From: Candidatus Bathyarchaeota archaeon
GTDB taxonomy: Archaea > Thermoproteota > Bathyarchaeia > 40CM-2-53-6 > RBG-13-38-9
Length of the DNA stretch: 24,000 bases
Reading direction: 5' to 3'
NCBI GenBank assembly: GCA_026394315.1
Contig: JAPKYM010000212.1
Location: 1-24,000, forward strand
Both the position numbers and the translations under genes were made by a program. Below are positions 1 to 24,000 of the stretch, piece by piece (within the stretch, counting starts at the first letter, position 1; every line of letters starts with the position of its first letter). The notes under the pieces are model-generated. The model had not been told where the DNA came from. It did no database searches and was given only the letters and a program-made list of their open reading frames with translations.

Positions 1-1681
1 CATATCGACGAGTTATGCCAGCACGCCCTTTGGCTCGTATGATTTTGGCACCAGCGTGTAATCCGAGCATCTCTTGTTGCTTTGCCATCCACATTGCCAT
101 ACGTAAGAAGCCTTTCTTGGCTTCTCCGTAGTAGTCAGTGCCGAGAACATAGGTTACGCCGATCTCAGGAAATACAAGTATTTGACGATCTTTCTCTTGC
201 CATTCAGGCACGTATACCAGTTGTAGAGATGAATCACTAGATTTTGGCGGGAAGAGCGTCTGGCTTACCATGTATGCCAGACGAACCATCTCTTTACGCT
301 GAACAGAAACGTAGAGGGTGCAATGGGGAGTGAATATTGGATTATCACCCATCGTTCTTTCAACAGCTACTAGGGGTGCCCGTTCTAAGTACTTGTGTAG
401 CTCCGCAATTGTTTGAGGCAGATTTCTAAGTATCTCCCGTTGACGAGGGTTGAGGTTTTTCTGTTGAACTGCTGGGCTACCGACGTAGACTGTTAAGTTG
501 GCACTCCTGTTCTTCACAGTTGAGGTGAAGTTGTAGTTCCCAAAGTTTGTCTTGGTTCCGTGTTCTTCCGCCATGGATCTGACAAGTTTCTCATCGAGGA
601 ACGTGACATTCGAGCGTTTTCTTAAAGAGTTGACGGCCTTCTTTACTTCGTCGAGATCGACTCGTACTTCAGATACCTCAACCGGCTTCGGAATTAGAGG
701 CTCAAGATATTCTCGGAAGAGTATTATCTCATTTATCCTCTTTTGTACTTCAAAAATCGGTCTAGTCGTGTTTATACTATAACACGCAACAAACTGGAGT
801 ATCTCCTTGAAGAAGGAAGTCAGTTGTTCCCTCTCTTCCTCTCTTCGATCTTCTGAAACTTCGAGACCTGATGGCGATCCTATGAGAAGTGTCAAGGCTT
901 CTTGATTGCTCAGACGTCTGTCTACAGTCTGGCTGTTCTCGTCAGCCTGAAGAAAGAAGATAAGTTTTATTCTTGTTGTGCCAACGAATTTCTCATTTCC
1001 ACCGATCCACCAAGGATCTAGCATGAAGTGACCTTCTTCACGTTGACACTTGTGTAATAACTCTTGAAGACGAGGACTTATCTTTGAGAGTTCAGTCTTC
1101 AGATAGAATTTGCGTTCGCAAGCTTGAGTTGATAGTCGACCCTTTTCGCCACCCAACTGTTCTACAGCAAATAAGTCGTTTGAGTGTATTCTTGCTCTCT
1201 CCAGGTCCAAAAGAAGGAAGGCGTGAGTTGATTTTCCGCATCCACGACTGCCAGCCAGCATTATTCCCTCGCCATTTATGTCTACCAAAGCACCGCGCAA
1301 AAGGCTGACACGTTTCTGATCTAATGATACATCCATCACTATACGTAGCCCGAGATCTCGAATAGCCTCGTAACTTCGCGGATTAAACACTATACCTGTC
1401 TTAGTTTCTGGATGATAGTGGCTAGCAACCTCAACTTGCGGCGTCTGGGTGATTGCATAGATTATTCCATGTGGCCTTAGATTGTGATCGTAAGCAGCAG
1501 GATACCAGTTTTCTTTCCAGAAAGCATCTAGATTGCTATCGTTGGTTCGGAGTTGGACAATTATTCCATTAATGTTGACATTCCATATGTATAGTGAATC
1601 GTATCCTAGAAATCGTTCGGCTAGCTTAGTAAGCTCCTTGATTCTGTGCAGACCGATTATTTTGAAAGCAGTTTGTGACAA
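1..1681 (-). CDS. Partial ORF (3' end beyond window edge): N-terminal HprK-related P-loop kinase-like domain fused to an ATP-type PEP carboxykinase-like domain
   Basis: My manual minus-strand translation gives one uninterrupted frame from the TGA-TGA at 1708-1703 down to position 1. It is missing from the ORF track because its stop lies outside the window. The first candidate start is TTG at 1681. LLRGALVDINGEGIMLAGSRGCGKSTHAFLL (P-loop codons about 1226-1252) followed by IHSNDL (1172-1186) fits the HprK/PEPCK-type P-loop plus a downstream acidic motif. NFTSTVKNRSANLTVYV (about 503-529), LGTDYYGEAKKGFLRMAMW (about 110-142) and LHAGAK (44-58) parallel the PckA motifs FTGRSPKD, GTxYxGEMKKG and MHCSAN, with E. 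coli-like spacing of about 140 aa. Confidence 0.6.
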   Translation of the reverse strand, partial: MSQTAFKIIGLHRIKELTKLAERFLGYDSLYIWNVNINGIIVQLRTNDSNLDAFWKENWYPAAYDHNLRPHGIIYAITQTPQVEVASHYHPETKTGIVFNPRSYEAIRDLGLRIVMDVSLDQKRVSLLRGALVDINGEGIMLAGSRGCGKSTHAFLLLDLERARIHSNDLFAVEQLGGEKGRLSTQACERKFYLKTELSKISPRLQELLHKCQREEGHFMLDPWWIGGNEKFVGTTRIKLIFFLQADENSQTVDRRLSNQEALTLLIGSPSGLEVSEDRREEEREQLTSFFKEILQFVACYSINTTRPIFEVQKRINEIILFREYLEPLIPKPVEVSEVRVDLDEVKKAVNSLRKRSNVTFLDEKLVRSMAEEHGTKTNFGNYNFTSTVKNRSANLTVYVGSPAVQQKNLNPRQREILRNLPQTIAELHKYLERAPLVAVERTMGDNPIFTPHCTLYVSVQRKEMVRLAYMVSQTLFPPKSSDSSLQLVYVPEWQEKDRQILVFPEIGVTYVLGTDYYGEAKKGFLRMAMWMAKQQEMLGLHAGAKIIRAKGRAGITRRY

Positions 1682-1899
1682 TACTGTCTTTCCCCTTGAA
1701 GATCATCATATTCTTTGGTTTCTGTTTTCACTCTAGTTGGTCGGCATTTACCATTATAGGCTACTTGCGGCGTCCGAGCTATCCAAATGAACGAGCCAAA
1801 GAACACTCCATCAAATATGAAGATTTCCATACAGACCAGAGCGAGCCCACTGCTTTCGCTCCCTGCCCAACTTACCATTTTGCTGACGTGCGCAGACAC
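1657..1899 (-). CDS. Hypothetical 80-aa protein with one hydrophobic segment (LALVCMEIFIFDGVFFGSFIWIA). It could instead be a frameshifted N-terminal extension of the downstream kinase-like ORF, or spurious.
   Basis: ATG-initiated ORF 32 nt downstream of the nfo stop, overlapping the next ORF by 25 nt. No recognisable motifs. A competing antisense ORF of equal size exists (1675..1914 +). Confidence 0.2.
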   Translation of the reverse strand: MSAHVSKMVSWAGSESSGLALVCMEIFIFDGVFFGSFIWIARTPQVAYNGKCRPTRVKTETKEYDDLQGERQYCHKLLSK

Positions 1900-1931
1900 A
1901 AATGCTATGGTTAAGAGTCTGCTATTAATTG

Positions 1932-2849
1932 CTAGGCTGCAAGTCTACGGATTCTTTGGATATTAGTGATATCCGTTCCGCGTCGATCTATTGGTGTCTC
2001 CAATATCAAAGGCAGTTCTCTAATCGTCCGATCATGAAGAATTGCTCGGAATCCTTCATGACCTATGCAGCCTAAACCTATGTGCTCGTGCCTGTCGATC
2101 CGCGAAGCCAAATCACCTTTAGAGTCGTTAATGTGTACTACTTTGAGTAGAGCCAGATCCACTGTATCTCGAAGCATAGACATCGTTCCTTCTACGGAAT
2201 CTTTGTTTCTTAGATCATATCCAGCCGCAAAGGCATGGCACGTATCAAAGCAAATGCCAACATGAGACTTCACAACATTGTCAATTATTTCGCGAATGTC
2301 CTCAAATGACGACCCCATACTATTTTTCGTTCCTGCAGTATTCTCAATCAGTATTGTCGCCTTACTTTCGGATGATTCTATAGCCAAGTTTAGCGCATTG
2401 ATTAGCCTGTTGAGGCCCATCTCTCTCCCTATACCGAGGTGGCTACCTAGATGTGTTACAATGAACGGGATTCCCAACTTTCCACATCTATTCAGCTCCT
2501 CTAGAAGGGCTCCGATAGACTTCTTGTAGACTGTTTCTCTGGGAGAAGATAGATTCGCTAAGTAGGGCATATGAGCAACTACTGGAAAGATTCCAGATGT
2601 TGACACTTTTTCTTTGAATCGAATTATGTTTTTGGGCTCAAGCCGTTTGGTCTTCCAACTTCTAGGATTCCTCGTGAATATCTGAAAAGTGTTGCATGTC
2701 TTCTCCTGTGCTCTGTCAACAGCTTGATCAATTGTTCCCGTGATCGAGATGTGTACACCACATTTTATCGGACTGTCAGTCCAATTGCCAGGTGCATTGG
2801 GCTTAGATGATGTAACAGACACAGTGGAAGTCTCGGTAACGTCGCTCAT
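1932..2849 (-). CDS. nfo: Endonuclease IV (AP endonuclease family 2)
   Basis: 305-aa ORF with ATG start. Nfo-type motifs are present: HMPYLANLSS, VTHLGSH, ENTAG, CFDTCHAFAAGYD, HINDSKGDLASRIDRHEHIGLGCIG. It carries an S/T-rich N-terminal extension of about 28 aa. Confidence 0.93.
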   Translation of the reverse strand: MSDVTETSTVSVTSSKPNAPGNWTDSPIKCGVHISITGTIDQAVDRAQEKTCNTFQIFTRNPRSWKTKRLEPKNIIRFKEKVSTSGIFPVVAHMPYLANLSSPRETVYKKSIGALLEELNRCGKLGIPFIVTHLGSHLGIGREMGLNRLINALNLAIESSESKATILIENTAGTKNSMGSSFEDIREIIDNVVKSHVGICFDTCHAFAAGYDLRNKDSVEGTMSMLRDTVDLALLKVVHINDSKGDLASRIDRHEHIGLGCIGHEGFRAILHDRTIRELPLILETPIDRRGTDITNIQRIRRLAA

Positions 2850-3072
2850 TGTCGCTGTAACAACCTAGATGTTTACTAGTCAATCATTATTACTAGACAG
2901 ACTGGAAAAAGGAGTATGTGTCCTGTCAATCGCGCGCGCTTTCCCTACAATTCTGACGGAATGCCACTGTAGACTAGGAATCCTGCTACTCGGAATACAG
3001 AGGCAAGAAGAATAATGTGTTGTGGTGATTAGAGATAGTTACTGTCAAACATCAGGTACTGTATGTCCTGCT

Positions 3073-6330: not shown

Positions 6331-7867
6331 TAAGTTTTCCATTTTCTTCTCTTAGCCCTTCGCCACTGATAACTTCAACAACAGTAAGACCTGTAGAAGA
6401 CATAATTACTTCTCCAGTGGACTTCGACTTCGGTTGTATCCCCACAACTCTGATCTTCGCCCCAGCCTTGAGACTTGCAGCCCTTTCCGCAAGATCTCTC
6501 CACAATGAGAGCCTAGCTCTACCGCTACCATCCGTCAGCACCAATGTTGCGACCTTTACATTTTCATTACTTCCGACTTGGACATTCCTTAACACTACAT
6601 CCCCTGAAACTACACCCTCAATAACCACGGGACGAGAGAGATTGCTGAGACTACCAAGCATAACTGGCTTGGGACAACTTGGCACCTTCATTCCGACTAC
6701 CTGTGGATTGCGCGTTAACTTACCAACCCCTCCAACACTCACAAAGAGTTCTCCACCTTTCTCCTTTGCAAGAGCATCACCTACAAGAATGATCTCGTCC
6801 ACATGCACTTCATATACAAACTCCGCCAGCTTGTCCCATAGAAAGAGCCTTACGAGGCCTGTTTCGTCTCCTACAAGTAGAGTTCCACAGCGTCTCGTCC
6901 CACCATCCATTCCCGAAAATTCTCTAATCCCACCCACTTCCACAACTCTGACAAGTAGTGATAGACTCTTTCCCTGTTGAAGATTCTCAATCTTACAGAA
7001 TTTGGGTAGTTTCATTTTTAGATACAGTGGCTTCTCTTTCAGTATTGATGTGATACTGTTATTCCCCAAATGCACTTCTGGTTTGCCTAACATGTCTGCC
7101 TTTACACGTCCACCTATCACCTGCAAAGTGTCGCCCCTTTTGAGATCAATCAGTCCTTGGGCCTTTTCGTTCCAAGCAACGATATTGATTGCTCCTGTCC
7201 CGTCTGTGATTGTTGTCTTAAGGAAACTTCCCTTTTGATCTTCTTTGCTGAAGGTCGAAAACTTAGGCGGTGACTCTACAACCCCTATGATACTTACATC
7301 GGCATCATTCAGTCTTAATTCTTGAAGTTCTGTGAAAAATTCGAAGATATCTGGATAGTCATTATTTCTGGAATCTAGGGGTAAGACCGTTATCTGGCAT
7401 CTGTCTCCTCCGTTGAACTCTGGGATCCCAGACATGCCTTCACGGGTGTATCCGTGTGCAAGCCGAATCAGCCTCCCTTGGAGTTCCCCTACTGCCGTTA
7501 CCTGCTCAGCTTTGCTGTTCCATAATACGCACTTCATCCTTCCAGTCCTATCACCCAAGACTAGCCTGACAAGTTTCCCTGGGGTCCCATCTTGCTTTCG
7601 AAATTCTTGGAGTGGCCACTGAGCGATGACCCTTCCTGTCAGTGTGACATCATTCAGGTTAGTGACTACATCAGCTATCTTGATCTCACTAAAGGTCTTT
7701 CCATCGACTCTTACAAGTAGATCTTGGGCTACGAGCCTCGCGGCTCCTTCATCAGAAAGTAAACCTTGTGCTTCCGCTTTTTTTTTCTCTAGAAGACCTA
7801 GTACCGATTCCCTTGACAGATCCGACCTTTGATCGAGGATCCTTTTTACTATGTGCTCAAGACTCAT
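6314..7867 (-). CDS. RPA-like single-stranded DNA-binding protein with several OB folds
   Basis: 517-aa ORF with ATG start. The N-terminal helical module ends ...LLSDEGAARLVAQDLLV and is followed by repeated units of about 100 aa with an OB-like pattern (V.L.G.V.......F....G......L.L.D.TG....LW). No zinc-ribbon Cys cluster is visible. The call rests on pattern recognition only. Confidence 0.65.
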   Translation of the reverse strand: MSLEHIVKRILDQRSDLSRESVLGLLEKKKAEAQGLLSDEGAARLVAQDLLVRVDGKTFSEIKIADVVTNLNDVTLTGRVIAQWPLQEFRKQDGTPGKLVRLVLGDRTGRMKCVLWNSKAEQVTAVGELQGRLIRLAHGYTREGMSGIPEFNGGDRCQITVLPLDSRNNDYPDIFEFFTELQELRLNDADVSIIGVVESPPKFSTFSKEDQKGSFLKTTITDGTGAINIVAWNEKAQGLIDLKRGDTLQVIGGRVKADMLGKPEVHLGNNSITSILKEKPLYLKMKLPKFCKIENLQQGKSLSLLVRVVEVGGIREFSGMDGGTRRCGTLLVGDETGLVRLFLWDKLAEFVYEVHVDEIILVGDALAKEKGGELFVSVGGVGKLTRNPQVVGMKVPSCPKPVMLGSLSNLSRPVVIEGVVSGDVVLRNVQVGSNENVKVATLVLTDGSGRARLSLWRDLAERAASLKAGAKIRVVGIQPKSKSTGEVIMSSTGLTVVEVISGEGLREENGKLISDYL

Positions 7868-7891
7868 GATGCTGGATCCTCGTCTGTATTC

Positions 7892-8950
7892 CTACCTGAA
7901 AGAGTTCCAGTATTCTTTCAGAATAGACTTGAGCTTCTTTATCCGTTCTTCGATCTCTTGATTTCTATTCACTTCTTGCCGTGCCTTCAGTTCTACTGGT
8001 AGGCAAGGTAAGTCAGCTAGAGCTGTAACTATGCTGGCTATGGACGCTGGAAGAGCTTCAAGATTGTATCCTCCTTCTAGAACTAGAGCTAGGTTATCCC
8101 TGCAGAACCTATGTGTGAGAACTAGTAACTTCCTCGTAATGTTAGCGTACGTGTAAGATGTGAACTCAAGATTCGCAATTGGATCTGCATAGTGAGCATC
8201 TTGACCTGCAGATACTGTGATAAACTCAGGTCTAAACTCTTCCACCAGTGGTGATACTATCTCAGCCAAGATCCGGTCGTAAACATCGCCCGATGTCCCC
8301 GCTGGCAATGGGAGATTAACATTGAAACCTCTTCCTTCCCCCTCACCAATCTCTTCCATATATCCTGTCCCTGGGTAGAGCGGCATCTGGTGGGTAGAGA
8401 AGTAGAGAACTGTAGGGTCTCCATAGAAAATATCCTGAGTTCCATTACCGTGATGAACGTCCCAATCTATAATCATGAAACGCTTTAGGCCAAATTTTCT
8501 CCTCAGATGCTCGATCATCACACAGACATTGTTGAAGTAGCAGAAGCCGCCACCATAGCCTCTTCCAGCATGATGTCCAGGAGGACGAACTAGGGCAAAG
8601 GAGTTTTTCACTTCTCCTCGGATTATGATTTCTCCAGCCTGGATAGCCCCTCCGGCACTCAGTCTAGCAATTTCATATGTTTCAGTTTGAACAGGTGTGT
8701 CGAGTGTGAGTACTCCCCCGCGTTTGCTAAGTGACTGAATCTCTTGGACATAATCCTCTATGTGGACAGCTGTTAGATCCTCTATTGTTGCTGGCTTGGG
8801 CGCGAACAGTTGTATCTCTGGATTGTCAAGCAAACCCGCTCTTCTAAGATATTCAATAGTTGTGCTAATTCTTTCTGGCTTCTCTGGGTGATCTTGCCCT
8901 AGATTGTGCCTGATGTAGTCAGGATGGTATACCAGCCCAGTTGTAGGCAT
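7892..8950 (-). CDS. Histone deacetylase-family (arginase/deacetylase fold) protein: protein or polyamine deacetylase, AcuC/Aph-like
   Basis: 352-aa ORF with ATG start. Motifs: RPPGHHAGRGYGGGFCYFNNV, DWDVHHGNGTQDIFY, GTGYMEEIGEGEGRGFNVNLPL, LEGGYN. Confidence 0.9.
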   Translation of the reverse strand: MPTTGLVYHPDYIRHNLGQDHPEKPERISTTIEYLRRAGLLDNPEIQLFAPKPATIEDLTAVHIEDYVQEIQSLSKRGGVLTLDTPVQTETYEIARLSAGGAIQAGEIIIRGEVKNSFALVRPPGHHAGRGYGGGFCYFNNVCVMIEHLRRKFGLKRFMIIDWDVHHGNGTQDIFYGDPTVLYFSTHQMPLYPGTGYMEEIGEGEGRGFNVNLPLPAGTSGDVYDRILAEIVSPLVEEFRPEFITVSAGQDAHYADPIANLEFTSYTYANITRKLLVLTHRFCRDNLALVLEGGYNLEALPASIASIVTALADLPCLPVELKARQEVNRNQEIEERIKKLKSILKEYWNSFR

Positions 8951-9684
8951 CCCTGAAGCCTCGAAGGTGGACAGAGTAGTTATATGCTCTTAACGTTTTC
9001 ACAACTTAATCCCAGAAAAGTCTGGTGCGCTGATATTCCCTCTCGGCCTTTAATATCTCCGAATATAATTCGGCTTCGCTGTGAACGTATTGTCTGAGAA
9101 TACGTGCTGCTGTTGCGGGTCCAACCCCTCTTGCAGCCATAGTTAGTATAGCCTTTCTTCCCGCTGTCTGTACTAGTCCCGCAGATCTCCAAGCTCTTCT
9201 CCACTGGTCCTCCTCTTCTAGGGTCAGCTTCGCATTGTTTTTCTTCTTAGTCGCTATTGTTAGAAGTTCATTGTCGCCGTGGTAGGCAACCGCTATCAAT
9301 GTTGATCTACATTTGAGGCATCTTATGACCTCGGATAGAGTCTTGACTGCTCTCACACTCTCCCAGTCAGCATTAAAGATGCCAGACCAATCTAACCGTT
9401 GTTGATAGAAGCCTTTCCTTTACTATTTCGGCTAGTGGTTAGGTTGGCAATGCGGGTCTGAGGAGATTATATGGGATAATCTTATTGATTATCGGTAGGG
9501 CAAAAGGTGAACAACTCATTCCCTTTGCTCTACTGCCTTTACTTTTATCTCTCCAGCGATGATTTTCTGAATTACTCTTATCGTGTTCGGGATGTCCAGC
9601 TTCTCTAAGTAGATCTCGCGCTGCGCCTCATGGTTTATTGGGGTTCCCCTGAATCTTTCAACGAGCAGTTTGGCTCTCCGAATC

Positions 9685-10545
9685 TTAGTCTGCCTTCGAT
9701 TCAACTGCTCCGAACCTCTTTGCTATGTGCCAATGCCTCCACGCAAAGAGCTCTGTGCTCTCAACTGCGCTGCCTATTATTGTCGAAACCTCATCTGGGC
9801 TCAGTTTCAGAAGTTCATTGGCAAGACTATTCGGATCTAGTTTCACAGGTGTCACTATAGCGATTCTGTAAGCGTCCACCTGAGTGAGAATGTTTAGTCC
9901 AGATTTGGCCTGCAGTAGAGTGGCTAGTATCAAAGCTAGAGTTTCATTGACTAGGTTACCGAAACATGCATGGATCACTATACAGTTTTCAAAACGTTCA
10001 ATGACTATCTGATCATTTGTTGGCAAGGGATAATCTCGGATATGAGTCTCGACTGTTTCCTTGACTCTTGACGTAGCATTGTCATTGATGTCAAGGTTCT
10101 TCGAGAGTTTTTGGAGTTCCTCACTAGAATCTACGGCCCTCGAGAAGGTGTCTCGAAGTCTGCCTACTTGCATAGCAACCTCATGCTCGACTGGTATTAT
10201 CTCCCCTTCCCAGCTAGGTATCGCTTTCAGAGTCGGTGCTGATGCTTCGACCTCTACACTTAGTTTGTCATCATCGACACATATGACGCGCCAAGTGCTC
10301 CCGTGCATGATAAATTCTGTACCAGTATGGCATCGCCTTGCCACAAACTCCTGATCGAGCGTTCCGAGGTGCCTTTTCAAAGCGAAATCGAACACTTTGT
10401 ACTTCTTTACATCTGGTATCATTGACAGATTCTCATAGTAGTATTTGTGTATTCTCGGAAACTTGGTGTATAGGATCTCAGCGGTCATTCTCACGATTCT
10501 CTGTTGTTGAAGCTGTTGGATGACACTAGAATGTTTTTGGCTCAA
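9685..10545 (-). CDS. Second large fragment of the disrupted Lhr-type helicase (WH plus DEAD-associated domain region)
   Basis: Track ORF of 286 aa. It overlaps the previous fragment by 20 nt in a different frame. Removing one A from the A5 run joins ...GNLEPK to HSSVIQQLQQQ... in frame. Confidence 0.75.
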   Translation of the reverse strand: MSQKHSSVIQQLQQQRIVRMTAEILYTKFPRIHKYYYENLSMIPDVKKYKVFDFALKRHLGTLDQEFVARRCHTGTEFIMHGSTWRVICVDDDKLSVEVEASAPTLKAIPSWEGEIIPVEHEVAMQVGRLRDTFSRAVDSSEELQKLSKNLDINDNATSRVKETVETHIRDYPLPTNDQIVIERFENCIVIHACFGNLVNETLALILATLLQAKSGLNILTQVDAYRIAIVTPVKLDPNSLANELLKLSPDEVSTIIGSAVESTELFAWRHWHIAKRFGAVESKAD

Positions 10546-11581
10546 GATTTCCGTAGGGATACGCTCCTCTCACAATGTTGTATGCTTCATCCAAAGCTAT
10601 CTTTCTTGTATCTAGGATTAAACCTACAATTTGGTGGGCCAGAACATCCAACGCATTATAATGTATCTTGAGTTCCTCAAGTTGACCCTTCTTAGCACGG
10701 CTTACCAGTACTGCTGACTCTAGTATGTCATCAGCCCACGTTGTAATTATGTGTCCGCGTGGTGAAGAGGTTAGTTGATGACCACTCCTCCCTATCCTTT
10801 GGATCATTCTGGTGGCTTCTCTCGGAGACATGTACTGGATTACAAGATCTACTGTTCCTACATCTATTCCTAGTTCAAGGGACGATGTGCAGATTACACC
10901 TTTGACTTTACCTTCTTGAAATTCTGCCTCAACTTGCTCCCTTATTTCTCTGGATAGTGAATCGTGGTGAACCTTCACGAGAATCTTGCAGCCTATTGCA
11001 TTTATTTGTGAACCTAGCGCTTCTGCATGTTCCCTTGTATTTGTGAATACGAGTGTTGAACGTTGCTCAGAGATGAGCTCACATATTCTTCTTACGCGAC
11101 CAACTGTTGCTGGTGGAATGCCTAGATTCTTTGCATCATCGTAGTCGCTTTTACTTGGATTCACATGTTCGACTTTGACGTCCAAGTTGCGGAGTTCAGC
11201 AGACTTCAGTATACGTGCTTCGCCTGATGAACCGGTGAGAAACTTTGATATCTTCTCAGCCTCACCAACGGTTGCAGAAAGCCCTACTCGTTGAAAATCG
11301 TGGCCAACCAGTCTACGGAGTCTCTCAAGAGCTACTGAAAGCTGTACTCCCCTTTTGTCTGTTGCAAGTTCATGGATCTCGTCAACAATTAGCCATCTAA
11401 CATTTCTTAGATGTTCTTTCATCCTCTTGCCTGGAAGTATTGCCTGTAATGTTTCGGGAGTTGTAATCAGCATATCAGGTGGTGACTTCGCCTGTTTTGC
11501 TCTTGCAGTCGTTGGGGTATCTCCATGTCTAATCTGGATGTCTAGCCCAAGATCCTTGCCACTTTCAAGAAGCCTTCTCAA
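10526..11581 (-). CDS. Largest fragment of the disrupted Lhr-type helicase (RecA1/RecA2 core); listed separately because a gene caller would report it as its own ORF
   Basis: Track ORF of 351 aa. The same frame stays open upstream to about 11735 and there encodes the Walker A APTGTGKT. The fragment contains DEIH, SAT, HHDSLS and QRIGRSGH. Confidence 0.8.
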   Translation of the reverse strand: MRRLLESGKDLGLDIQIRHGDTPTTARAKQAKSPPDMLITTPETLQAILPGKRMKEHLRNVRWLIVDEIHELATDKRGVQLSVALERLRRLVGHDFQRVGLSATVGEAEKISKFLTGSSGEARILKSAELRNLDVKVEHVNPSKSDYDDAKNLGIPPATVGRVRRICELISEQRSTLVFTNTREHAEALGSQINAIGCKILVKVHHDSLSREIREQVEAEFQEGKVKGVICTSSLELGIDVGTVDLVIQYMSPREATRMIQRIGRSGHQLTSSPRGHIITTWADDILESAVLVSRAKKGQLEELKIHYNALDVLAHQIVGLILDTRKIALDEAYNIVRGAYPYGNLEPKTF

Positions 11582-12045
11582 TAGGTCGCGGTTGAGCGCC
11601 CTGAGAGGTGTTACGTATAGTATACTTACTCCTTTGAGCTTCTTTGAGATTTGATTCGACAGATAGAGATTGAATATTGGAAGAATAGCTGCCAGAGTTT
11701 TGCCTGTTCCAGTGGGAGCGATAAGAAGAACGTTTTGCCTTTCAATATGTCTGGAATCGCAAGCTTCTGAATCTCGCTCGCTTCTGCTATCCCGTACCTT
11801 TGAATTTGTCGTCTGAGAGGCTCTTCCAGTAACCCAAATACGTTCTCAGCCATCAAGCTGTCTCCAGTGATCTCTAGGTCGATGGTGCCTCCTAATGACT
11901 CAACTAGCAATAGTGCAAAGGATAAACGTTCACTTCATGAGCAAAGCCACAAGGTAGCCTGTTCAGAGCACGCGCTAAGTCACTTGGTGTGTGCTATTGT
12001 TCTGTAATGAACTTCTACTGGTTACTAAGCCGCTTTCCAGATTCG

Positions 12046-14645: not shown

Positions 14646-15965
14646 CTACTCAAGCGATTTGGTCAAGTTTACGTCTTTTACCAAGACGTATGGAGTTAGA
14701 GTCGGAAATTCAACCTCCCACCACTTTACCCAATACTGCTTATCTGACAGACAAGAGATGTTTCTCAGTAATCGCGGGAGGTTCTCACTGATCCTTAAGC
14801 CCTTTAGAGACTGGACTATCTCACCGTCAGCAACACGGAATATGCCGTCCCTGCAGACTGTTGAGAAGTCACCAGTTCTGTAATTCTGAAATCTCGTGTA
14901 CCAGTTGTTCGTTATGAAGATACCGTTATCGAGATCACTAAACAATCCCTCTTCGCTAGCACCTCCTCGCTCAACAATGATATTCCATGGCTGAGGTACA
15001 ATCCAGCCTGCGTTTGCTGTACTGCGCCTACCGAACTTCTTAGCGGTTGAGGAGTTGTGAAGAAAACTCTGAAGAACTCCATTCTTTATGACGATTGTTT
15101 TCTGGGTCGGTACGCCTTCGTCATCAAATGCTCTTGAATTCAAACCATCGCTCAGCGTCCCGTCATCAACGAGAGTGAGACTCTTGGAAGCCACCCTCTT
15201 TCCTAACATGCCTGCCATAAACGAGAGTCCCGCATCAACGTTGAAGGCAGACGCAGCAGATATCACGTCATTCATGAGATTGGCAACGACATTCGGTCCA
15301 AGAATCACATCGTACTTCCCTGGTTTGCCTTCGAAAGGGTTGACTGCTTTCTTAGCTATCTCAGCCGCTGCCTTGCCAGCTTGTTCAGGATGAAAATCCT
15401 TCTCTGATCTTGCACATGAGTTGGATTGACCTGAGGCCTCGATGCCAGAGAAAGCTCGAACGGAGATCTCCAGAGAAGACAAGCTGTCATTTCCTGACGC
15501 TCCTGCTGAGGTCTCTATTCCTATACTTGAACTTCTGAAAAACAGACTGCCAGCGACTCTGTCGGCACCACTAGAAACAGCACTTGAGATGGCGTCCTTC
15601 ACATACTTTACTAAGTTGGAGCTCTGAACGGAGAGACCGGCCTGTGGAGACCTATACTTGAATGGGCCTGCTGGAAGACTTACATAGTTTTTATTTGGTC
15701 TAGTTGTTTTCGCGATTTTTAGAAGTTGGCTGATTGATTGCTTCATCGAACCTTCGGAGAGATCCTCTATTACGCCTATTGCGACCTTTTTCCTAATAGA
15801 AACCATGACGCATATTGTGGTGGAACGCCAAGATTGACTTACCGTGACCTCATTATTTGCGAATCGTATCATTCTTGCGTCTTCTCTAACATAGGTGGCA
15901 GCTACGTTATCTGCTCCTCCTCGCTTGCCTTCTCTGACTGCTAATGAAGCTAGACTGTTCTCCAA
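14646..15965 (-). CDS. pmbA: PmbA/TldE-family metalloprotease partner subunit
   Basis: 439-aa ORF starting 4 nt after the tldD stop, with an apparent TTG start. Sequence is TldE-like throughout (GADNVAA...R.ANNE, the C-terminal GDFS...G..V..GEI). It lacks the HExxxH motif, as expected for the PmbA partner. Confidence 0.85.
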   Translation of the reverse strand: MENSLASLAVREGKRGGADNVAATYVREDARMIRFANNEVTVSQSWRSTTICVMVSIRKKVAIGVIEDLSEGSMKQSISQLLKIAKTTRPNKNYVSLPAGPFKYRSPQAGLSVQSSNLVKYVKDAISSAVSSGADRVAGSLFFRSSSIGIETSAGASGNDSLSSLEISVRAFSGIEASGQSNSCARSEKDFHPEQAGKAAAEIAKKAVNPFEGKPGKYDVILGPNVVANLMNDVISAASAFNVDAGLSFMAGMLGKRVASKSLTLVDDGTLSDGLNSRAFDDEGVPTQKTIVIKNGVLQSFLHNSSTAKKFGRRSTANAGWIVPQPWNIIVERGGASEEGLFSDLDNGIFITNNWYTRFQNYRTGDFSTVCRDGIFRVADGEIVQSLKGLRISENLPRLLRNISCLSDKQYWVKWWEVEFPTLTPYVLVKDVNLTKSLE

Positions 15966-15969
15966 CGCT

Positions 15970-17394
15970 TTAGAGCCCTCCTAATCTGACCTTTCTCAGC
16001 CTAATGTCTGGGCCGCCTGTCCAGACAGGTGCCCCCTGTTGGGGATCTCCTTTCCCACAAGTTGCGGCAGTAAAGGAAAGATCCCTGCCAACTGCATCAA
16101 CACTTTCGTAGAGGCGGGGCGTAGTTATCTCTAGAACCGGGTTCCGTACAAGATGCGCAAGTTTGCCTTTCTTAATCAAGTAAGCTTCTAAACCGACATA
16201 TCGTTGGCTGAATCTTCGATCGTCTATGTTCCACTCCATGAAACTCTTGATGTAGACTCCTTTTGGTATTGACTCCAACAGCTCTTCAAAACGGTGATCT
16301 CCTCTATCCATGTATGTGTTGGACATCCGGATTATCGGTTCTCGGCTATAGGAGATCGTCCTTGCCGCTCCATTGCTTTCGATACCAAGTTCCGCAGAAG
16401 TTTCTCTGTTGTGTAAGAAGGTATTCACTATTCCTCTTCTTATGAGTTCGCGACGTCTGACTTTGACCCCCTCATCATCATAGAGATTGTAACCATATGA
16501 TTGCGGGATTGTTGGGTCATCAACAACCGTGACCTGAGAGCTTCCGATTCTCTTTCCCAGCATCTCAGTGCTAACGAAGGATTCGCCAGCTGCGGCAGCT
16601 TCACGCCCAAGTATTCTATCAGCTTCGAATGGATGGCCGCATGATTCATGGGATACTATTCCAACGACTTCGCTTCCTAAAACTACATCCAGCACATTCT
16701 TAGGAGGCTTTCTTCCTTCGCTTAGGATTGAGGCGAGAATATCAGCTTCCTCTGATGCAAGTTCAATTAGATTCCAAGCTGAGACAGCTTCCCAACCTGA
16801 ACTCGCTCCTTTCTTATTGAACCGTTGAACGGTTCCTTTGCCTGGGCTGTATGCAGTTACGATATAGGAGAAGGCTATTCTTGGAATCTTCGAGGTTATG
16901 AATGTGCCCTCGCTGTTTAGAAATGTTTGTTCGTTGATTGTTTCGCTTAGGGTCAAAATCCTGGCAGGGAACTTGACCCCTCTTCTAGGTTTGAAACACT
17001 TGTCCGCCTCAAGAATAAGCTTAAGCCTATCCTCCATACCCACAGACGTCAATTTCTGTTTCTGTTGGACTTCCCATTTGTCTCTATTAGTTTTCACATT
17101 AGAAAGGACGGTGGGTTTCCTCAAGGTTTCTGCAGCAACACGTGCCATGGTCGCAGCCGTTAGTACGGTTTCTGTGACATTGCTTTTGCTGAGTTCATTT
17201 GTTGATGCGAATACTAATGAGCCATTGATTATCAACCTTATACCTATACCTAGTTCAGTGAGAAAGGCCGAGAATTGAGGTTCGCCGTTCTTTATGGAGG
17301 TTGAGCGGCTCACGAGCTTCTGTATCCTAGCTTCCGAATATGTTGAACCTAAGCTTCCAGCGTAGTCAACAACGAATCTCGCGATATCTTCCAA
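15970..17394 (-). CDS. tldD: TldD-family zinc metalloprotease
   Basis: 474-aa ORF with an apparent TTG start. It carries the HExxxH motif in VSHESCGHPFEADR, a conserved DDEG, and the C-terminal CGKGDPQQGAPV. Confidence 0.9.
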   Translation of the reverse strand: MEDIARFVVDYAGSLGSTYSEARIQKLVSRSTSIKNGEPQFSAFLTELGIGIRLIINGSLVFASTNELSKSNVTETVLTAATMARVAAETLRKPTVLSNVKTNRDKWEVQQKQKLTSVGMEDRLKLILEADKCFKPRRGVKFPARILTLSETINEQTFLNSEGTFITSKIPRIAFSYIVTAYSPGKGTVQRFNKKGASSGWEAVSAWNLIELASEEADILASILSEGRKPPKNVLDVVLGSEVVGIVSHESCGHPFEADRILGREAAAAGESFVSTEMLGKRIGSSQVTVVDDPTIPQSYGYNLYDDEGVKVRRRELIRRGIVNTFLHNRETSAELGIESNGAARTISYSREPIIRMSNTYMDRGDHRFEELLESIPKGVYIKSFMEWNIDDRRFSQRYVGLEAYLIKKGKLAHLVRNPVLEITTPRLYESVDAVGRDLSFTAATCGKGDPQQGAPVWTGGPDIRLRKVRLGGL

Positions 17395-17685: not shown

Positions 17686-19224
17686 TTGACCAAGGATCTT
17701 AGAGAAGCGATAGTAGAGATCACGTTGGCTGGTTACCAGTTGGAAGCGGAAGCCTTCGAGCTATTGCGTATTCTCCAAAGTGAGGAGCATTTCGAATTCA
17801 TTATTAACGAATCGTTAGTTGAAGCAAATAGCCTCTCTCCGAAACCGATCGTGATTACCCGCGATCTGGTCGAGAAAGTGCTCAGCAAAATGGCAAAAGG
17901 GAAGGAAGTTGCAGGAGATCATGTTCACCTAAGGTCATCAGTACCGCTTGCTAAAGAGATCAGTAGTGATATTGAGATAATCAAAGACGGAAATGAAGAA
18001 GCTGATTCAAGCGGAACAATAGGTGATTTCAACCAATACTTTAGGGACAGGTATGAAAAACTCTCTATAATCTTGCATGAGAGATTAGATTTCAGGGATG
18101 CACATGATGTCACCACCGCTCTCGAAGCAAAGTACGGCGCAAAATTGAAGATGACTGCTATAGTCATGAACAAACGTGAAAGAATTGATCAAGTGTTCCT
18201 AGAGGTTGAGGATGTAGAAAGCACGGCGACAGTACTCATCACTTCTAGCAAAAGTAGAGAACTCTTCGAAATGGCACGGAGAATTCTTCCAGATCAAGTA
18301 ATCGGAATAGAGGCGGTCCGAGGCAAGGGTGACCTTTTCATAGCAGAACAGGTTATCCTGCCAGATGTCCCTGAAAAAAGGTCACCAAAAGCAGACTGCC
18401 CTGTCAATGCTATTCTGCTATCTGATATTCATGTAGGCAGCAAGACCTTTTGTTCTGATGCTTTCGAAAGACTAGTAATGTGGCTCAATGGCAAGATTGG
18501 AACACCGAAGCAAGTAGACGCTGCCTCAAGAACTAAATATGTGATAATAGCAGGAGACCTCGTAGATGGCATCGGTGTCTACCCACGTCAAGAAGAAGAT
18601 TTGATCATCACAAGCATTCATGAGCAATACAAGAAGGTCGCTCAGTATATCGAACAAATTCCTGATTATGTAGAGATCATAGTCATCCCAGGCAATCACG
18701 ATGCTGTAAGACAAGCGCTCCCCCAACCAGCAATCTCTAAGGAGTTCGCAGAATCAGTCTATGAAGTTAGGAATGTAAGGAGCCTAGGAAATCCCTCTGA
18801 GGTAAAGATACATGGAATACACTTCCTGCTATATCACGGAAGGAGCTTGGATGACGTAATAGCCAGAGTGCCTAACCTCAGTCTTCGAACTCCTGAGAAA
18901 GCAATGGAGTATCTACTGAAATGTAGACATTTAGCACCTGAGTATGGTGCAAGGACCTCGTTGGCACCTGAGTGCAAAGACAGACTCATTATCACCAAAG
19001 TCCCAGATGTCTTTCAAGCTGGCCACATCCATGTTGCAAGTAACTCATCTTATAGGGGCACTCTAATTGTGAACTGTGGCGCTTGGCAAGAACAAACTGA
19101 ATATCAAAGGAGAATGGGAATCGATCCTACACCAGGAGTTATGCCTATCCTGAACCTTCATACACTAGATCTGAATATGATGAATTTCATTTCCAGTGAA
19201 GTCGCTATCTCGCCAAACCCGTAG
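17686..19224 (+). CDS. dp1: DNA polymerase II (family D) small subunit DP1 (3'-5' exonuclease, calcineurin-like phosphoesterase fold)
   Basis: 512-aa ORF with an apparent TTG start. It has an N-terminal helical domain, an OB region, then the phosphoesterase motifs LLSDIHVGS, IIAGDLVDGIGVYP, IPGNHD, LYHGRS and GHIHV. Confidence 0.9.
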   Translation: MTKDLREAIVEITLAGYQLEAEAFELLRILQSEEHFEFIINESLVEANSLSPKPIVITRDLVEKVLSKMAKGKEVAGDHVHLRSSVPLAKEISSDIEIIKDGNEEADSSGTIGDFNQYFRDRYEKLSIILHERLDFRDAHDVTTALEAKYGAKLKMTAIVMNKRERIDQVFLEVEDVESTATVLITSSKSRELFEMARRILPDQVIGIEAVRGKGDLFIAEQVILPDVPEKRSPKADCPVNAILLSDIHVGSKTFCSDAFERLVMWLNGKIGTPKQVDAASRTKYVIIAGDLVDGIGVYPRQEEDLIITSIHEQYKKVAQYIEQIPDYVEIIVIPGNHDAVRQALPQPAISKEFAESVYEVRNVRSLGNPSEVKIHGIHFLLYHGRSLDDVIARVPNLSLRTPEKAMEYLLKCRHLAPEYGARTSLAPECKDRLIITKVPDVFQAGHIHVASNSSYRGTLIVNCGAWQEQTEYQRRMGIDPTPGVMPILNLHTLDLNMMNFISSEVAISPNP

Positions 19225-20458
19225 TTCTTCTCACAAAACGAGGCACATATCTGAACAACGGCTTGACCAAACCATCCTCAGACAACGCTTCAATGACAGA
19301 CCGTTCCCCAGCTCCCAGACGCACTTTCTTGGTCCTACCGTACCTCCCGAAGTTTACGACTCTAGCGTTCAGGATCCCCATTATGTCAAGCTCGCTAATT
19401 AGTCCACTAACCCTTCTCTGAGTTAACGGGTCGACCTTGACCTCTCTACACAGTTCTTGATAGACATTGTAGATGTCGCCTGTCACACCATCCTTAGATG
19501 AGTGGCTACCGAAGAGAAAGACGCTTAGGAGCACAAGCTTTGAGTGTAGAGGTAGGGATGTGAGGATCTCAGTTATTTGGTCATGTTCAACCTTCCGCTG
19601 TGCAGTTCTAACATGTTCCTCCGTCACTTCCTCGCAATCACTGCGCTCAGCCAATTCACCAGCAATACGCAGAAGGTCTAGTGCTCGACGTGCATCCCCA
19701 TGTTCGCCAGCCGCAAGTGCCGCACAAAGTCTTACAGCTGACTCTTTCAGACAGCCCTGATTAAATGCAATTCTAGATCGCGTCTGCAAAATATTGCAGA
19801 GTTCATCTGCTAGGTAGGGTTTGAATATGACCTCCTCCTCTCCAAGACAGCTCAGGATTCGTGGATCGAGAAAATCTTTGAAGTGAAGGTCATTGGATAC
19901 GCCTACAAGTCCCACCCAGCCTCCGTGAAGGCTTTCGTTTATTCTTGTTAGTTCATATAGAAGGCTATTTTCTGCGTTGCGTTTGCCTAGTGTATCGATC
20001 TCATCGAGTACTATTAGTAAGCAACATCCCGTCTTTTCGATACCGTCTCTGAACCTGTTAAATAGCTCACCGACGGCCAGTCCTGTGAATGGAACCTGTA
20101 CGCCCATTGAGCGGCAAATCTCAGCAAGAACTCTGTAGTTAGTTCCAGAGAGTCTACAGTTGACATACGACAGCCTGAGTTTTGTTCCCAACTCATTCGC
20201 TTTTCTTCCTAGACTGTCGAGTACGTGTTTCACAACAGCGGTTTTGCCAGTGCCTGTCTTCCCGTATATGAAAATGTTGGAGATCTTAGATAGGGTTAGA
20301 GCTGGAGCCAGCATCTTCCCCAGTCTAGTGATCTCGTATTGCCGGTGAGGTAGATCTTTGGGAATGTAGTCATGTCTGAGAACTTCTCGATTTGAGAATA
20401 TTCTACTACCCGATAGGAATTTCTCGAATATTCCTTCGAGAGCCTCAGAGCTAGGCAA
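19205..20458 (-). CDS. cdc6: Orc1/Cdc6 replication initiator (AAA+ domain plus winged helix)
   Basis: 417-aa ORF with an apparent TTG start. Motifs: L.HDYIPKDLPHRQYEI, Walker A GKTGTGKTAV, Walker B LLIVLDEID, sensor GDARRALDLLR, and a C-terminal winged-helix region. It overlaps dp1 by 20 nt in convergent orientation. Confidence 0.92.
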   Translation of the reverse strand: MPSSEALEGIFEKFLSGSRIFSNREVLRHDYIPKDLPHRQYEITRLGKMLAPALTLSKISNIFIYGKTGTGKTAVVKHVLDSLGRKANELGTKLRLSYVNCRLSGTNYRVLAEICRSMGVQVPFTGLAVGELFNRFRDGIEKTGCCLLIVLDEIDTLGKRNAENSLLYELTRINESLHGGWVGLVGVSNDLHFKDFLDPRILSCLGEEEVIFKPYLADELCNILQTRSRIAFNQGCLKESAVRLCAALAAGEHGDARRALDLLRIAGELAERSDCEEVTEEHVRTAQRKVEHDQITEILTSLPLHSKLVLLSVFLFGSHSSKDGVTGDIYNVYQELCREVKVDPLTQRRVSGLISELDIMGILNARVVNFGRYGRTKKVRLGAGERSVIEALSEDGLVKPLFRYVPRFVRRTTGLAR

Positions 20459-20552: not shown

Positions 20553-20671
20553 TGAATGACTATCAAAGAAAGTCATCCTTGATCGCTCTGAAGAGAACTG
20601 ATTAAATATTACTCGCCTATTTAGCCTACGCCAGATTTGGACGATTCATTATTACCAGGTGTTATTCGTTG

Positions 20672-23305: not shown

Positions 23306-23310
23306 AGGGA

Positions 23311-23336
23311 CACATACACCTCTATTTCCTCTGGAG
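23311..23336 (-). repeat. ORB-like element a (consensus on the minus strand: ctccagaggaaatagaggtgtatgtg)
   Basis: It is the reverse complement of element b at 23 of 26 positions. Its TCCAG end faces the AT-rich centre. Confidence 0.6.
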
Positions 23337-23488
23337 AATAAAACTCTTTTTAGGTTTTGATATTGATTTTAATATAAAACTCTTTGAATGGTAATTTGTG
23401 ATTGTTCTTTAACTATTTTCTAATCTATTTTTTTTAACTGAACAATCCAAACAATTGATCGGTGAGCATACACAACCATGCAAAATAA

Positions 23489-23514
23489 CTCCAGTGGAAA
23501 AATAGGTGTATGTG
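23489..23514 (+). repeat. ORB-like element b (ctccagtggaaaaataggtgtatgtg)
   Basis: It contains TCCAGTGGAAA, the core I recall for archaeal ORB/mini-ORB Orc1-binding sites. It is the inverted partner of element a across about 150 bp of AT-rich DNA. Confidence 0.6.
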
Positions 23515-23608
23515 TCTGTGAACTTCTGTGAATAAATATTGATTAGGGGCAAGAAACTCGAGGAAATGCATTAATTAGCCATTTTATGTTCACTTTCTGT
23601 GAAGGTCT

Positions 23609-23634
23609 AAATAACCCCTTCATTTCCTCTGCAA
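23609..23634 (-). repeat. Mini-ORB-like element c (shares the 10-bp core atttcctctg with element a)
   Basis: The core at 23622-23631 is identical to 23324-23333. The flanks are only partly conserved, giving about 17 of 26 matches overall. Confidence 0.4.
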
Positions 23635-23722
23635 GCGTACATTCTTCCTATGCAAGCAATTAATAGCATTCACAAACTGATGAAAAATAGGCGAAATAAA
23701 TAAAAGCGTTCACAAGTATTAG

Positions 23723-23736
23723 ATTCACATGTGAAT
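23723..23736. promoter_or_regulatory. Perfect 14-bp palindrome ATTCACATGTGAAT overlapping the start codon of the downstream ORF (candidate operator)
   Basis: Read directly from the sequence. It is the terminal member of an array of seven TGTGAA/TTCACA hexamers between 23517 and 23735. An A/T-rich TATA-like stretch (aaataaataaaa, about 23694-23705) lies about 30-40 nt upstream. Confidence 0.35.
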
Positions 23737-24000
23737 GGCCAACAACGGTGCTTTAGTTTTGCCAGCCCACCGTGTTAAGATTGAGTTCTACGACAAGGAA
23801 GGAGTAAAACATGTAATGGCCATTGAGGGAAATGTCACACGGGAAAAAGTTGGAAAGATTTTGGATTATATTGAACTGATGGGTGGAGTGGCCGCAAATC
23901 TATCCCCAGACAAGCCTATCAGCAGAATTCAACACACTCGGTTCGAGAAGACTCTTTCCTTAGTGCTCTCCAACTTTACTGATAAGACCTTCTTGTCCAA
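23735..24000 (+). CDS. Hypothetical protein, partial (runs off the right edge)
   Basis: Manual translation from ATG 23735: MANNGALVLPAHRVKIEFYDKEGVKHVMAIEGNVTREKVGKILDYIELMGGVAANLSPDKPISRIQHTRFEKTLSLVLSNFTDKTFLS. The frame is open to the window end, which is why the ORF track lacks it. Composition is protein-like, but I recognised no family. Confidence 0.5.
   Translation, partial: MANNGALVLPAHRVKIEFYDKEGVKHVMAIEGNVTREKVGKILDYIELMGGVAANLSPDKPISRIQHTRFEKTLSLVLSNFTDKTFLS

Follow-up and report, generated by a model that had tools for sequence, protein, structure and literature searches.

The 24,000 nucleotides analysed here (hereafter, the window) are positions 1 to 24,000 of contig JAPKYM010000212.1, from assembly GCA_026394315.1 of a Candidatus Bathyarchaeota archaeon. 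On the minus strand they begin with a gene for a long phosphoenolpyruvate carboxykinase (PEPCK), in which a predicted catalytic enzyme is preceded by a second, shortened module that is also predicted to have a PEPCK fold. Translation of the window gives 567 stop-free codons on the minus strand of 1-1702, a frame closed upstream by an in-frame TGA at 1703-1705 (-). The existence of an open frame of at least 560 codons that leaves the window, which had been pointed out in an earlier inspection of the letters alone (the sequence-only reading), is thus confirmed; because the frame leaves the window end, the gene is missing from the program-made list of open reading frames (ORFs). The other 320 codons, located past window position 1, were recovered by a database search, which returned an essentially identical full-length protein of 880 amino acids (P0001); 12 metagenome contigs carry it as one gene call. 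As for its beginning, the first possible start is a TTG at 1679-1681 (-), after which no in-frame ATG appears for more than 120 codons; this TTG is favoured since homologues, with N-termini such as MQQTV.. and MPQTI.., start at the same position. The features of the gene are the following:

1-1681, minus strand: coding sequence of the long PEPCK, codons 1-560 of 880 (open frame, TTG start, match to P0001)
1679-1681, minus strand: TTG start codon, the equivalent of the residue at which homologues begin
662-1681, minus strand: N-terminal module, residues 1-340, a predicted truncated and degenerate PEPCK fold (AF2, Foldseek, hhalign)
1226-1252, minus strand: Walker A motif GSRGCGKST of the N-terminal module, residues 144-152, intact here and unconserved in orthologues
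1127-1195, minus strand: invariant motifs ARIHSxD (residues 163-169) and LGGEKGRxST (176-185), in the place of the PEPCK kinase-2 DD and the hairpin that follows it
971-1015, minus strand: invariant motif PWWIGGxxKxxxTTR, residues 223-237, aligned to the PEPCK Arg333 loop (E. coli numbering)
641-700, minus strand: inter-module linker PLIPKPVEVSEVRVDLDEVK, residues 328-347, predicted to be disordered
1-646, minus strand: first 215 residues (346-560) of the catalytic PEPCK module (PEPCK_ATP, NF006821, structure match)
503-538, minus strand: lineage signature NYNFTSTVKNRS, residues 382-393, invariant in long and short forms
56-142, minus strand: PEPCK motifs GTDYYGEAKKG (110-142) and LHAGA (His at 56-58), by alignment to E. 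coli PckA

All the motifs quoted in the sequence-only reading are found among them, that is, GSRGCGKST, ARIHSND (the window copy of ARIHSxD, at 1175-1195), NYNFTSTVKNRS, GTDYYGEAKKG and LHAGA.

The integrity of this long frame is well supported. A related contig (L007, 1200-1300; protein P0067) carries the N-terminal module and the PEPCK as two overlapping ORFs, and it could be taken as a sign that the long ORF is an artefact, in which neighbouring genes were joined by a sequencing or assembly error, or else a pseudogene. Nevertheless, the split on L007 is accounted for by a single base missing from the linker, whose restoration recovers the conserved ..EV...VNSLR.. frame and whose loss probably reflects an error of sequencing or a mutation of recent date; a natural two-gene form of the protein was consequently rejected, as it rests on one contig and one deleted base. 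The DNA-level comparison covered window 1-3000 and six of the 12 contigs bearing P0001, and these six, which come from six different samples, are 99.7-99.9% identical to the window with zero gaps. Such agreement excludes an overlooked stop codon, a shift of frame or a chimera created in assembly, and with them the stop or frameshift near 700-800 that had been considered as a possible refutation of a single long gene. Moreover, the nearest named relatives of P0001 (Candidatus Bathyarchaeota/Bathyarchaeia) are 81-83% identical to it, and more than 85 long-form orthologues of 860-913 amino acids with conserved N-terminal modules are found in several archaeal and bacterial phyla. Taking together the intact call on 12 contigs, the gap-free matches and the orthologues, the artefactual origin is refuted to the point that its probability is negligible. 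The conservation counts given below refer to a set of 85 of these orthologues.

The C-terminal module, a divergent ATP-type PEPCK

The C-terminal ~535 residues of the long protein are predicted to constitute a complete and catalytically competent nucleotide-dependent PEPCK of the divergent ATP-type lineage described by NCBIfam NF006821. With the full protein, Pfam PEPCK_ATP (PF01293) reaches 166.1 bits (cut-off 26.5) over residues 368-835, and the PEPCK subfamily model NF006821 reaches 430.6 bits (cut-off 369) over profile positions 25-521 of 525. The part encoded in the window is enough to obtain 42.4 bits and E=5e-11 with PEPCK_ATP, in agreement with the PEPCK-like nature that had been proposed for the second module. 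The pckA equivalog TIGR00224 stays at 71.9 bits with the full protein, far from its cut-off of 590, and the module must therefore be assigned to a divergent lineage and not to the orthologues of E. coli PckA. Beyond the window, P0001 displays a kinase-1a P-loop of its own (GLTATGKTT), a kinase-2 motif (IIQDD) and a complete PEPCK C-terminal domain, as indicated by the extent of the NF006821 match, which disposes of the alternative that the protein might be a permuted PEPCK. At the structural level, the full-length AF2 model has a mean pLDDT of 86.7, and Foldseek matches the C-terminal module to ATP-PEPCKs at E=2.6e-33 to 1e-28 with target-normalised TM of 0.73-0.81, values that fall to 0.63-0.70 for GTP-PEPCKs.

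Alignment to E. coli PckA makes Y517, K522, K523 and H542 the equivalents of Y207, K212, K213 and H232, and K572, T573, D594, D595, K615 and R661 those of K254, T255, D268, D269, K288 and R333; all ten of these checked catalytic residues are conserved in 85/85 orthologues. The first ~185 residues of the catalytic module give no sequence alignment to PckA, the HMMER alignments beginning at about profile residue 181-187. The motif NYNF[TV]STVKNRS is invariant across the lineage, including ordinary forms of 540-570 amino acids from Bathyarchaeia and Hadesarchaea, and it can be regarded from these alignments as a signature of the whole PEPCK lineage rather than of the fusion. The sequence-only reading was correct in describing FTSTVKNRS as divergent; the presence of the motif in forms of ~550 amino acids deprives it of value, by itself, as an argument against PEPCK activity. 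Its invariant R392 is a plausible candidate for the counterpart of Arg65 of E. coli PckA (FTGRSPKDK), which binds PEP and oxaloacetate.

Comparison with known enzymes helps to delimit what is particular to the long form. The PckAs of E. coli (1AQ2) and Thermus thermophilus (1J3B) share with the C-terminal module the two-domain fold, the kinase-1a P-loop and the ten catalytic residues, and the N-terminal module also appears to have the PckA fold in a reduced form. The solved PckAs are, however, only ~20% identical to the C-terminal module and carry FTGRSPKDK in place of NYNF[TV]STVKNRS, and we know of no PckA that contains a second, degenerate PEPCK-fold module. The pyrophosphate (PPi)-dependent PEPCK (~1150 amino acids) resembles the long form in being far longer than the usual PEPCK of 530-620 amino acids. 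This enzyme, which occurs in Propionibacterium, Entamoeba and Actinomyces, is enlarged by insertions and lobes and is not known to contain a second PEPCK-fold module. Identity with it was rejected, since PPi-dependent PEPCK is absent from the top 50 Foldseek matches of the long PEPCK and the latter retains a canonical GxxGxGKT nucleotide P-loop.

Fold and conservation of the N-terminal module

The N-terminal module of the long PEPCK (N-module) is the member present in this gene of a wider family, here called X. Its AF2 model (pLDDT 85.7, pTM 0.85) was compared with known structures by Foldseek: the best 35 matches were all ATP-PEPCKs (E down to 5e-14, query-normalised TM 0.66-0.73, ~380-405 columns), ranks 36-50 of the 50 listed were GTP-PEPCKs, and no HprK was present among these 50. 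The relationship is also detected at the profile level. Aligned by hhalign, the profiles of the N-module and of the PEPCK module match with a probability of 90.6% and E=1.3e-6 over 298 columns, N-module residues 21-331 pairing with PEPCK-module positions 100-461; a repeat against short-form PEPCKs was similar, with an overall probability of 89-91% and E ~1e-6. Stand-alone relatives of the N-module match the PEPCK module directly in tblastn searches (E ~1e-9 to 1e-10). The N-module, which falls short of a PEPCK by about 100 residues at the N-terminus and 80 at the C-terminus, is modelled as a shortened PEPCK fold over its whole length. The profile and fold results on both halves thus bear out the previous proposal of a tandem of two related P-loop-fold modules in one polypeptide.

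The same proposal had likened the N-terminal ~320 residues to HprK. The C-terminal domain of HprK resembles the nucleotide-binding domain of PEPCK, both belonging to one P-loop superfamily, and HprK and the HprK-related kinases share with the N-module, apart from the superfamily, a close local match along a strand, the P-loop and a helix. Pfam Hpr_kinase_C (PF07475) gives 22.9-23.7 bits with the N-module (E=4e-5 to 7e-5), below its cut-off of 33.3, and the match is confined to ~50 of the 340 residues, around the P-loop. TIGR00679 (HprK) gives 19-20 bits against a cut-off of 240, and the models for HprK-related A/B and ScmC (TIGR04352, TIGR04355, TIGR04249) give ~12-13 bits against cut-offs of 125-200. 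When a profile of 31 N-modules was run against PDB sequences, the sole matches were to HprK, and these were weak (E=0.024-0.13). HprK differs from the N-module in lacking any counterpart of the part of the PEPCK N-terminal domain that the latter contains, and the N-module differs from HprK in that its Walker A motif is not conserved across orthologues. Neither the window nor the loci inspected showed HPr or phosphotransferase system genes, no dedicated whole-genome search having been made. By curated thresholds and fold neighbours, the N-module is outside the HprK family and constitutes an unnamed family of its own within the same superfamily. What survives of the HprK likeness is therefore the local P-loop match and the superfamily fold; the extension of that likeness to the whole module does not, as the Pfam score is below the cut-off, the match spans ~50 residues, and all 50 listed structural neighbours of the complete module are PEPCKs and not HprK.

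The residues of the N-module reveal both degeneration and constraint. The Walker A lysine is kept in 35/85 orthologues and replaced by Arg in 25/85 and by Ile, Val or Asn in another 25/85; the full motif is intact in 22/85, and in Lokiarchaeial N-modules the loop reads SKSYTEIAT. To judge from these numbers, the N-module is not a conserved kinase. In the profile alignment to PEPCK, the equivalent of K213 is Ser, Asp or Ala, that of H232 is Arg in 84/85 orthologues, that of D268 is variable, and the R333 loop is deleted. At the same time, R164, S167, G177, G178, G181, R182, S184, T185, P223, W225, G228, T235 and R237 are present in 85/85 orthologues and R129, R190, K231 and T236 in 84/85, while Y104 is also invariant or nearly so. 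These residues align with the loops that form the active-site cleft of PEPCK. The 176-181 loop (GGEKGR) has low pLDDT in the full-length model; mobile functional loops are often predicted with low confidence. Since the P-loop lysine is gone in 50/85 orthologues of a module that is otherwise strongly constrained, catalysis does not seem to be its conserved function, and the overall pattern is the one expected of a pseudoenzyme that would have retained a binding function. From the loss of the equivalents of Lys213, His232, Asp268 and Arg333, together with that of most P-loop lysines, it follows that X is probably a pseudoenzyme module and not a second kinase.

The linker that joins the two modules has pLDDT below 50 at residues 330-337 of the full-length model, and it differs in length and sequence among orthologues. 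No solved structure spans both modules, the query-normalised TM obtained by Foldseek with the full-length model being at most 0.50.

The X module outside the long PEPCK and its gene linkage

A sensitive search with the N-module profile retrieved 235 representative proteins at E <= 0.001 and uncovered two groups besides the long PEPCK. The first consists of stand-alone proteins of ~320-570 amino acids, related to the N-module at E down to 1e-101, that retain the motifs DYYGxxK, IHG, GTGKS(T), HSDD and SE[RK]xFY and look catalytically active to judge from these residues. Where they are named by their source they appear, with one exception, as 'hypothetical protein', and none of the Pfam or NCBIfam models matches them above threshold. 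Three of them (P0122, P0128 and P0131) are on short contigs. Some relatives of ~550 amino acids, such as P0153 and P0180, have a long insertion between HSDD and SExxFY and an extended C-terminus, and their amino-acid composition suggests that they derive from high-GC genomes.

The second group is formed by proteins of ~781 amino acids that carry an X module behind a class I/II aminotransferase. In NCBIfam, the aminotransferase part scores best with aspartate transaminase models, without reaching their equivalog cut-offs, and the proteins, named 'hypothetical protein' or aminotransferase by their sources, will be referred to as AspAT-X (aspartate aminotransferase-X). Their X module aligns with the archaeal N-module at an hhalign probability of 100% (E=2.2e-96, 323 columns) and has in common with it the motifs WNxNIxGxxxQLRTN, FWxENWxP, PHG, ERK[FY] and DPxWxxGxxK, so that both can be considered, on this sequence evidence, the same module. 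Walker A is likewise variable in AspAT-X, whereas the GGEKGR motif of the archaeal N-module is absent from it. The AspAT-X modules (e.g., P0125, ~620-660) also carry a Cys-rich insertion, CENV..C..C..C.LD.G.P.C, that is absent from the archaeal N-module and is possibly a metal site. AspAT-X is widespread, being found in Zixibacteria, Aminicenantes, Acidobacteriota, Ignavibacteriales, Calditrichota, Gemmatimonadota, Latescibacterota and others.

An analogy can be drawn with tandem-duplicated enzymes that have a degenerate half, such as mammalian hexokinase I and eukaryotic phosphofructokinase, in which the fold is likewise doubled in one chain, with one copy catalytic and the other conserved in spite of having lost the catalytic residues. 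The difference is that X is truncated, has free-standing relatives and is also fused to another enzyme. Because of these free-standing relatives and of the fusion to a different enzyme, X behaves as a mobile module rather than as the product of a simple duplication in place.

The link between X and PEPCK is not restricted to the fusion. The genome loci of 80 AspAT-X genes were searched over a 10-kb range with the PEPCK module of the window protein, and a PEPCK 36-44% identical to the C-terminal module was found in 67/80 of them. In 61/80 it is located directly downstream on the same strand, its match beginning 80-560 bp past that of X. Five of the 13 loci without PEPCK have less than 1 kb of downstream sequence. 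In the two AspAT-X-adjacent PEPCKs examined in detail, the best match was NF006821, below its cut-off. X is therefore tied twice to this PEPCK lineage, as it is fused to it in archaea and a few bacteria and adjacent to it, on AspAT, in bacteria. In a Zixibacterial locus, the ~440-bp gap between AspAT-X and PEPCK is filled by a nucleoside-diphosphate kinase gene, which is only a hint as to nucleotide specificity. On this Zixibacterial chromosome (L011 7001-14813), AspAT-X, nucleoside-diphosphate kinase, PEPCK, a Zn-ribbon protein, an FAD oxidase and citrate synthase follow one another on one strand, with AspAT-X at 7001-9346 and PEPCK at 9785-11638.

The genes that accompany other members of the lineage have also been inspected. 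Ordinary-length Bathyarchaeial PEPCKs follow, at a distance of 30-50 bp, a gene for an archaeal asparagine synthetase A (NF005054, 367-380 bits; cut-off 309), with an AsnC-type regulator upstream (L094 4289-7650, L095 4278-7662). In a Lokiarchaeon (GCA_011365055.1; L009 3328-8682), a canonical GTP-PEPCK of 638 amino acids, an AsnC-type regulator and the long PEPCK adjoin, this genome thus holding two different PEPCKs. On the whole, the lineage appears to work at the aspartate/oxaloacetate/PEP node, and the asparagine synthetase context hints at a carboxylating, anaplerotic direction of the enzyme. No conserved neighbour is shared by the archaeal and bacterial long forms in the loci examined (the window, Freyarchaeota, the Lokiarchaeon and one bacterium): endonuclease IV and purine genes are found here, and unrelated genes in Freyarchaeota and in the bacterium. 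In two Asgard loci (L008 9037-13419, L009 8872-13086), the long PEPCK is immediately followed, on its own strand, by a giant ORF of 1400-1460 amino acids with essentially no Pfam match.

Possible roles of the module and other genes of the window

From what has been shown so far on domain architecture, fold, homology, conserved residues and linkage of the genes, the explanation that we favour, with confidence slightly above even, is that X is a non-catalytic PEPCK paralogue whose dedicated role is to partner this lineage of PEPCKs at the aspartate/oxaloacetate/PEP node. X and the catalytic PEPCK would associate physically into a pseudo-dimer, in cis when they are fused, as in archaea, and in trans in bacteria, where the pairing would keep the aminotransferase beside PEPCK for the steps that connect aspartate, oxaloacetate and PEP. 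The vestigial cleft, in which the invariant Arg, Lys, Ser and Thr residues of X would lie, probably binds an anionic ligand that tunes the enzyme; from all this we infer a role that is either docking or allosteric. A more ambitious and clearly more tentative version, to which we give about one chance in three or somewhat less, holds that X is a new family of PEPCK-fold pseudoenzymes that physically couples AspAT and PEPCK into an oxaloacetate-handling complex, or else confers a response to effectors of the aspartate family, in a lineage extending over Bathyarchaeia, Asgard archaea and many Zixibacteria, Aminicenantes, Ignavibacteriales and Acidobacteriota, with the stand-alone relatives as new small P-loop phosphotransferases bridging PEPCK and HprK.

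Several observations count against the partner role. The full-length AF2 model has a pTM of 0.65 and, with its linker disordered, does not provide a confident packing of one module on the other. Among the 13 AspAT-X loci without PEPCK, eight have at least 2.4 kb of downstream sequence and no PEPCK in that flank. No aminotransferase is found near the archaeal long-form loci examined, so a docking role deduced from bacterial gene order may not hold in archaea. The Walker A motif GxxGxGKST is intact in all 13 closest orthologues, which are Bathyarchaeial, and nucleotide binding or even catalysis by the N-module may persist in this organism. Finally, to our knowledge no member of this PEPCK lineage has been assayed.

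The alternatives are taken here in the order of the falling confidence that they deserve. An unlikely, though still sizeable, possibility is that the N-module acts purely as an allosteric sensor of the fused enzyme (e.g., for aspartate, oxaloacetate, PEP or a nucleotide) and has no docking role. This would agree with the invariant Arg, Lys, Ser and Thr at positions aligning to active-site loops of PEPCK, with the fusion of X to two enzymes that have oxaloacetate as common ligand (PEPCK in archaea, the aminotransferase in bacteria), and with the AsnC-type regulator and asparagine synthetase A of related loci, which point to aspartate-family control. A sensor alone, however, leaves unexplained the position of AspAT-X directly upstream of this PEPCK lineage. 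Somewhat less likely again is that the N-module works, in Bathyarchaeia at least, as a P-loop kinase or phosphorylase of the HprK type, which would act on a protein (possibly PEPCK itself) or a metabolite and turn the long PEPCK into a bifunctional protein. The loss of the P-loop lysine in most orthologues under strong constraint elsewhere, the replacement or absence of the metal- and substrate-binding equivalents of K213, H232, D268 and R333, the HprK profile scores under every curated cut-off and the PEPCK identity of the fold neighbours all speak against such an activity. Nonetheless, the N-module of the window has, besides its intact Walker A (GSRGCGKST), an acidic D169 at the kinase-2 position and a Lys at the equivalent of K288; the motif is kept in 13/13 of the closest Bathyarchaeial orthologues, the local match to HprK is close (LRGALVDINGEGIMLAG vs LHGVLVDVYGVGVLITG), with a Pfam E of 4e-5 and HprK as the only PDB sequence matches, and the stand-alone relatives retain all the kinase-type residues.

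The next alternative is a different catalysis at the PEP/oxaloacetate node, such as oxaloacetate decarboxylation or a phosphoryl transfer without the classical P-loop lysine. In its favour can be mentioned the very strong conservation of the polar residues of the vestigial cleft and the K-to-R change in 25/85 orthologues, which preserves the positive charge of the P-loop. Still, another 25/85 have Ile, Val or Asn at that position, the Lokiarchaeial loop has been rewritten, acidic or His metal ligands are not conserved, and we know of no precedent for such an enzyme, all of which makes this option quite improbable. The artefactual joining of genes dealt with above comes last. Taken together, the conserved and probably non-catalytic module, its link to AspAT in bacteria and the asparagine synthetase A and AsnC-type regulator beside the ordinary-length archaeal forms provide a concrete and testable hypothesis on how the metabolism of aspartate, oxaloacetate and PEP may be organised or regulated in these organisms.

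PEPCK works at the PEP/oxaloacetate node, where the choice between gluconeogenesis and anaplerosis is made. Many Bathyarchaeia and Asgard archaea have their PEPCK in the long form and, because databases label it simply as 'phosphoenolpyruvate carboxykinase', metabolic reconstructions of these uncultured lineages take it for a common PckA. A third of its length is, nevertheless, a conserved paralogue module that is probably non-catalytic, belonging to a domain family within the PEPCK/HprK superfamily for which no Pfam or NCBIfam model exists, and this module links aspartate aminotransferase to PEPCK in many bacterial phyla. The long form is thus a real, widespread and unannotated elaboration of PEPCK, but it does not represent a new kind of system. 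No description of its architecture or of the pairing of AspAT-X with PEPCK was found in the searched literature, in which subscription journals were not covered, in line with the impression of novelty conveyed by the sequence-only reading. A paper on Haloferax reports that H. volcanii has no PEPCK.

As regards the remaining genes of the window, endonuclease IV (nfo; TIGR00587, 275 bits) is encoded at 1932-2849 (-), directly upstream of the PEPCK gene from which it is separated by a 250-bp spacer, with no obvious functional link between them. A second PEP-handling enzyme, pyruvate,phosphate dikinase (TIGR01828, 1353 bits; domains PPDK_N, PEP-utilizers and PEP-utilizers_C), is encoded 19 kb from the long PEPCK, at 20669-23305 (+), and its presence is relevant to the question of which way PEPCK may operate. 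An Lhr-type helicase at 9685-11581 (-) appears as two overlapping ORFs, DEAD/Helicase_C/WH_Lhr followed by WH_Lhr/DEAD_assoc; separate gene calls for the DEAD_assoc part also appear on an independent contig (L001), and the split may be real or due to a shared frameshift. Tandem genes for metallopeptidases of the PmbA/TldD family occupy 14646-17394 (-). At 17686-20458, a gene resembling the PolD small subunit (DNA_pol_E_B and Metallophos, +) converges on Cdc6/Orc1 (19205-20458, -), and a replication origin may be near these genes. Together with the Bathyarchaeial nearest relatives of P0001, both genes identify the source of the DNA as an archaeon, most likely a Bathyarchaeion. The GC content goes down to 38% at 23001-24000.

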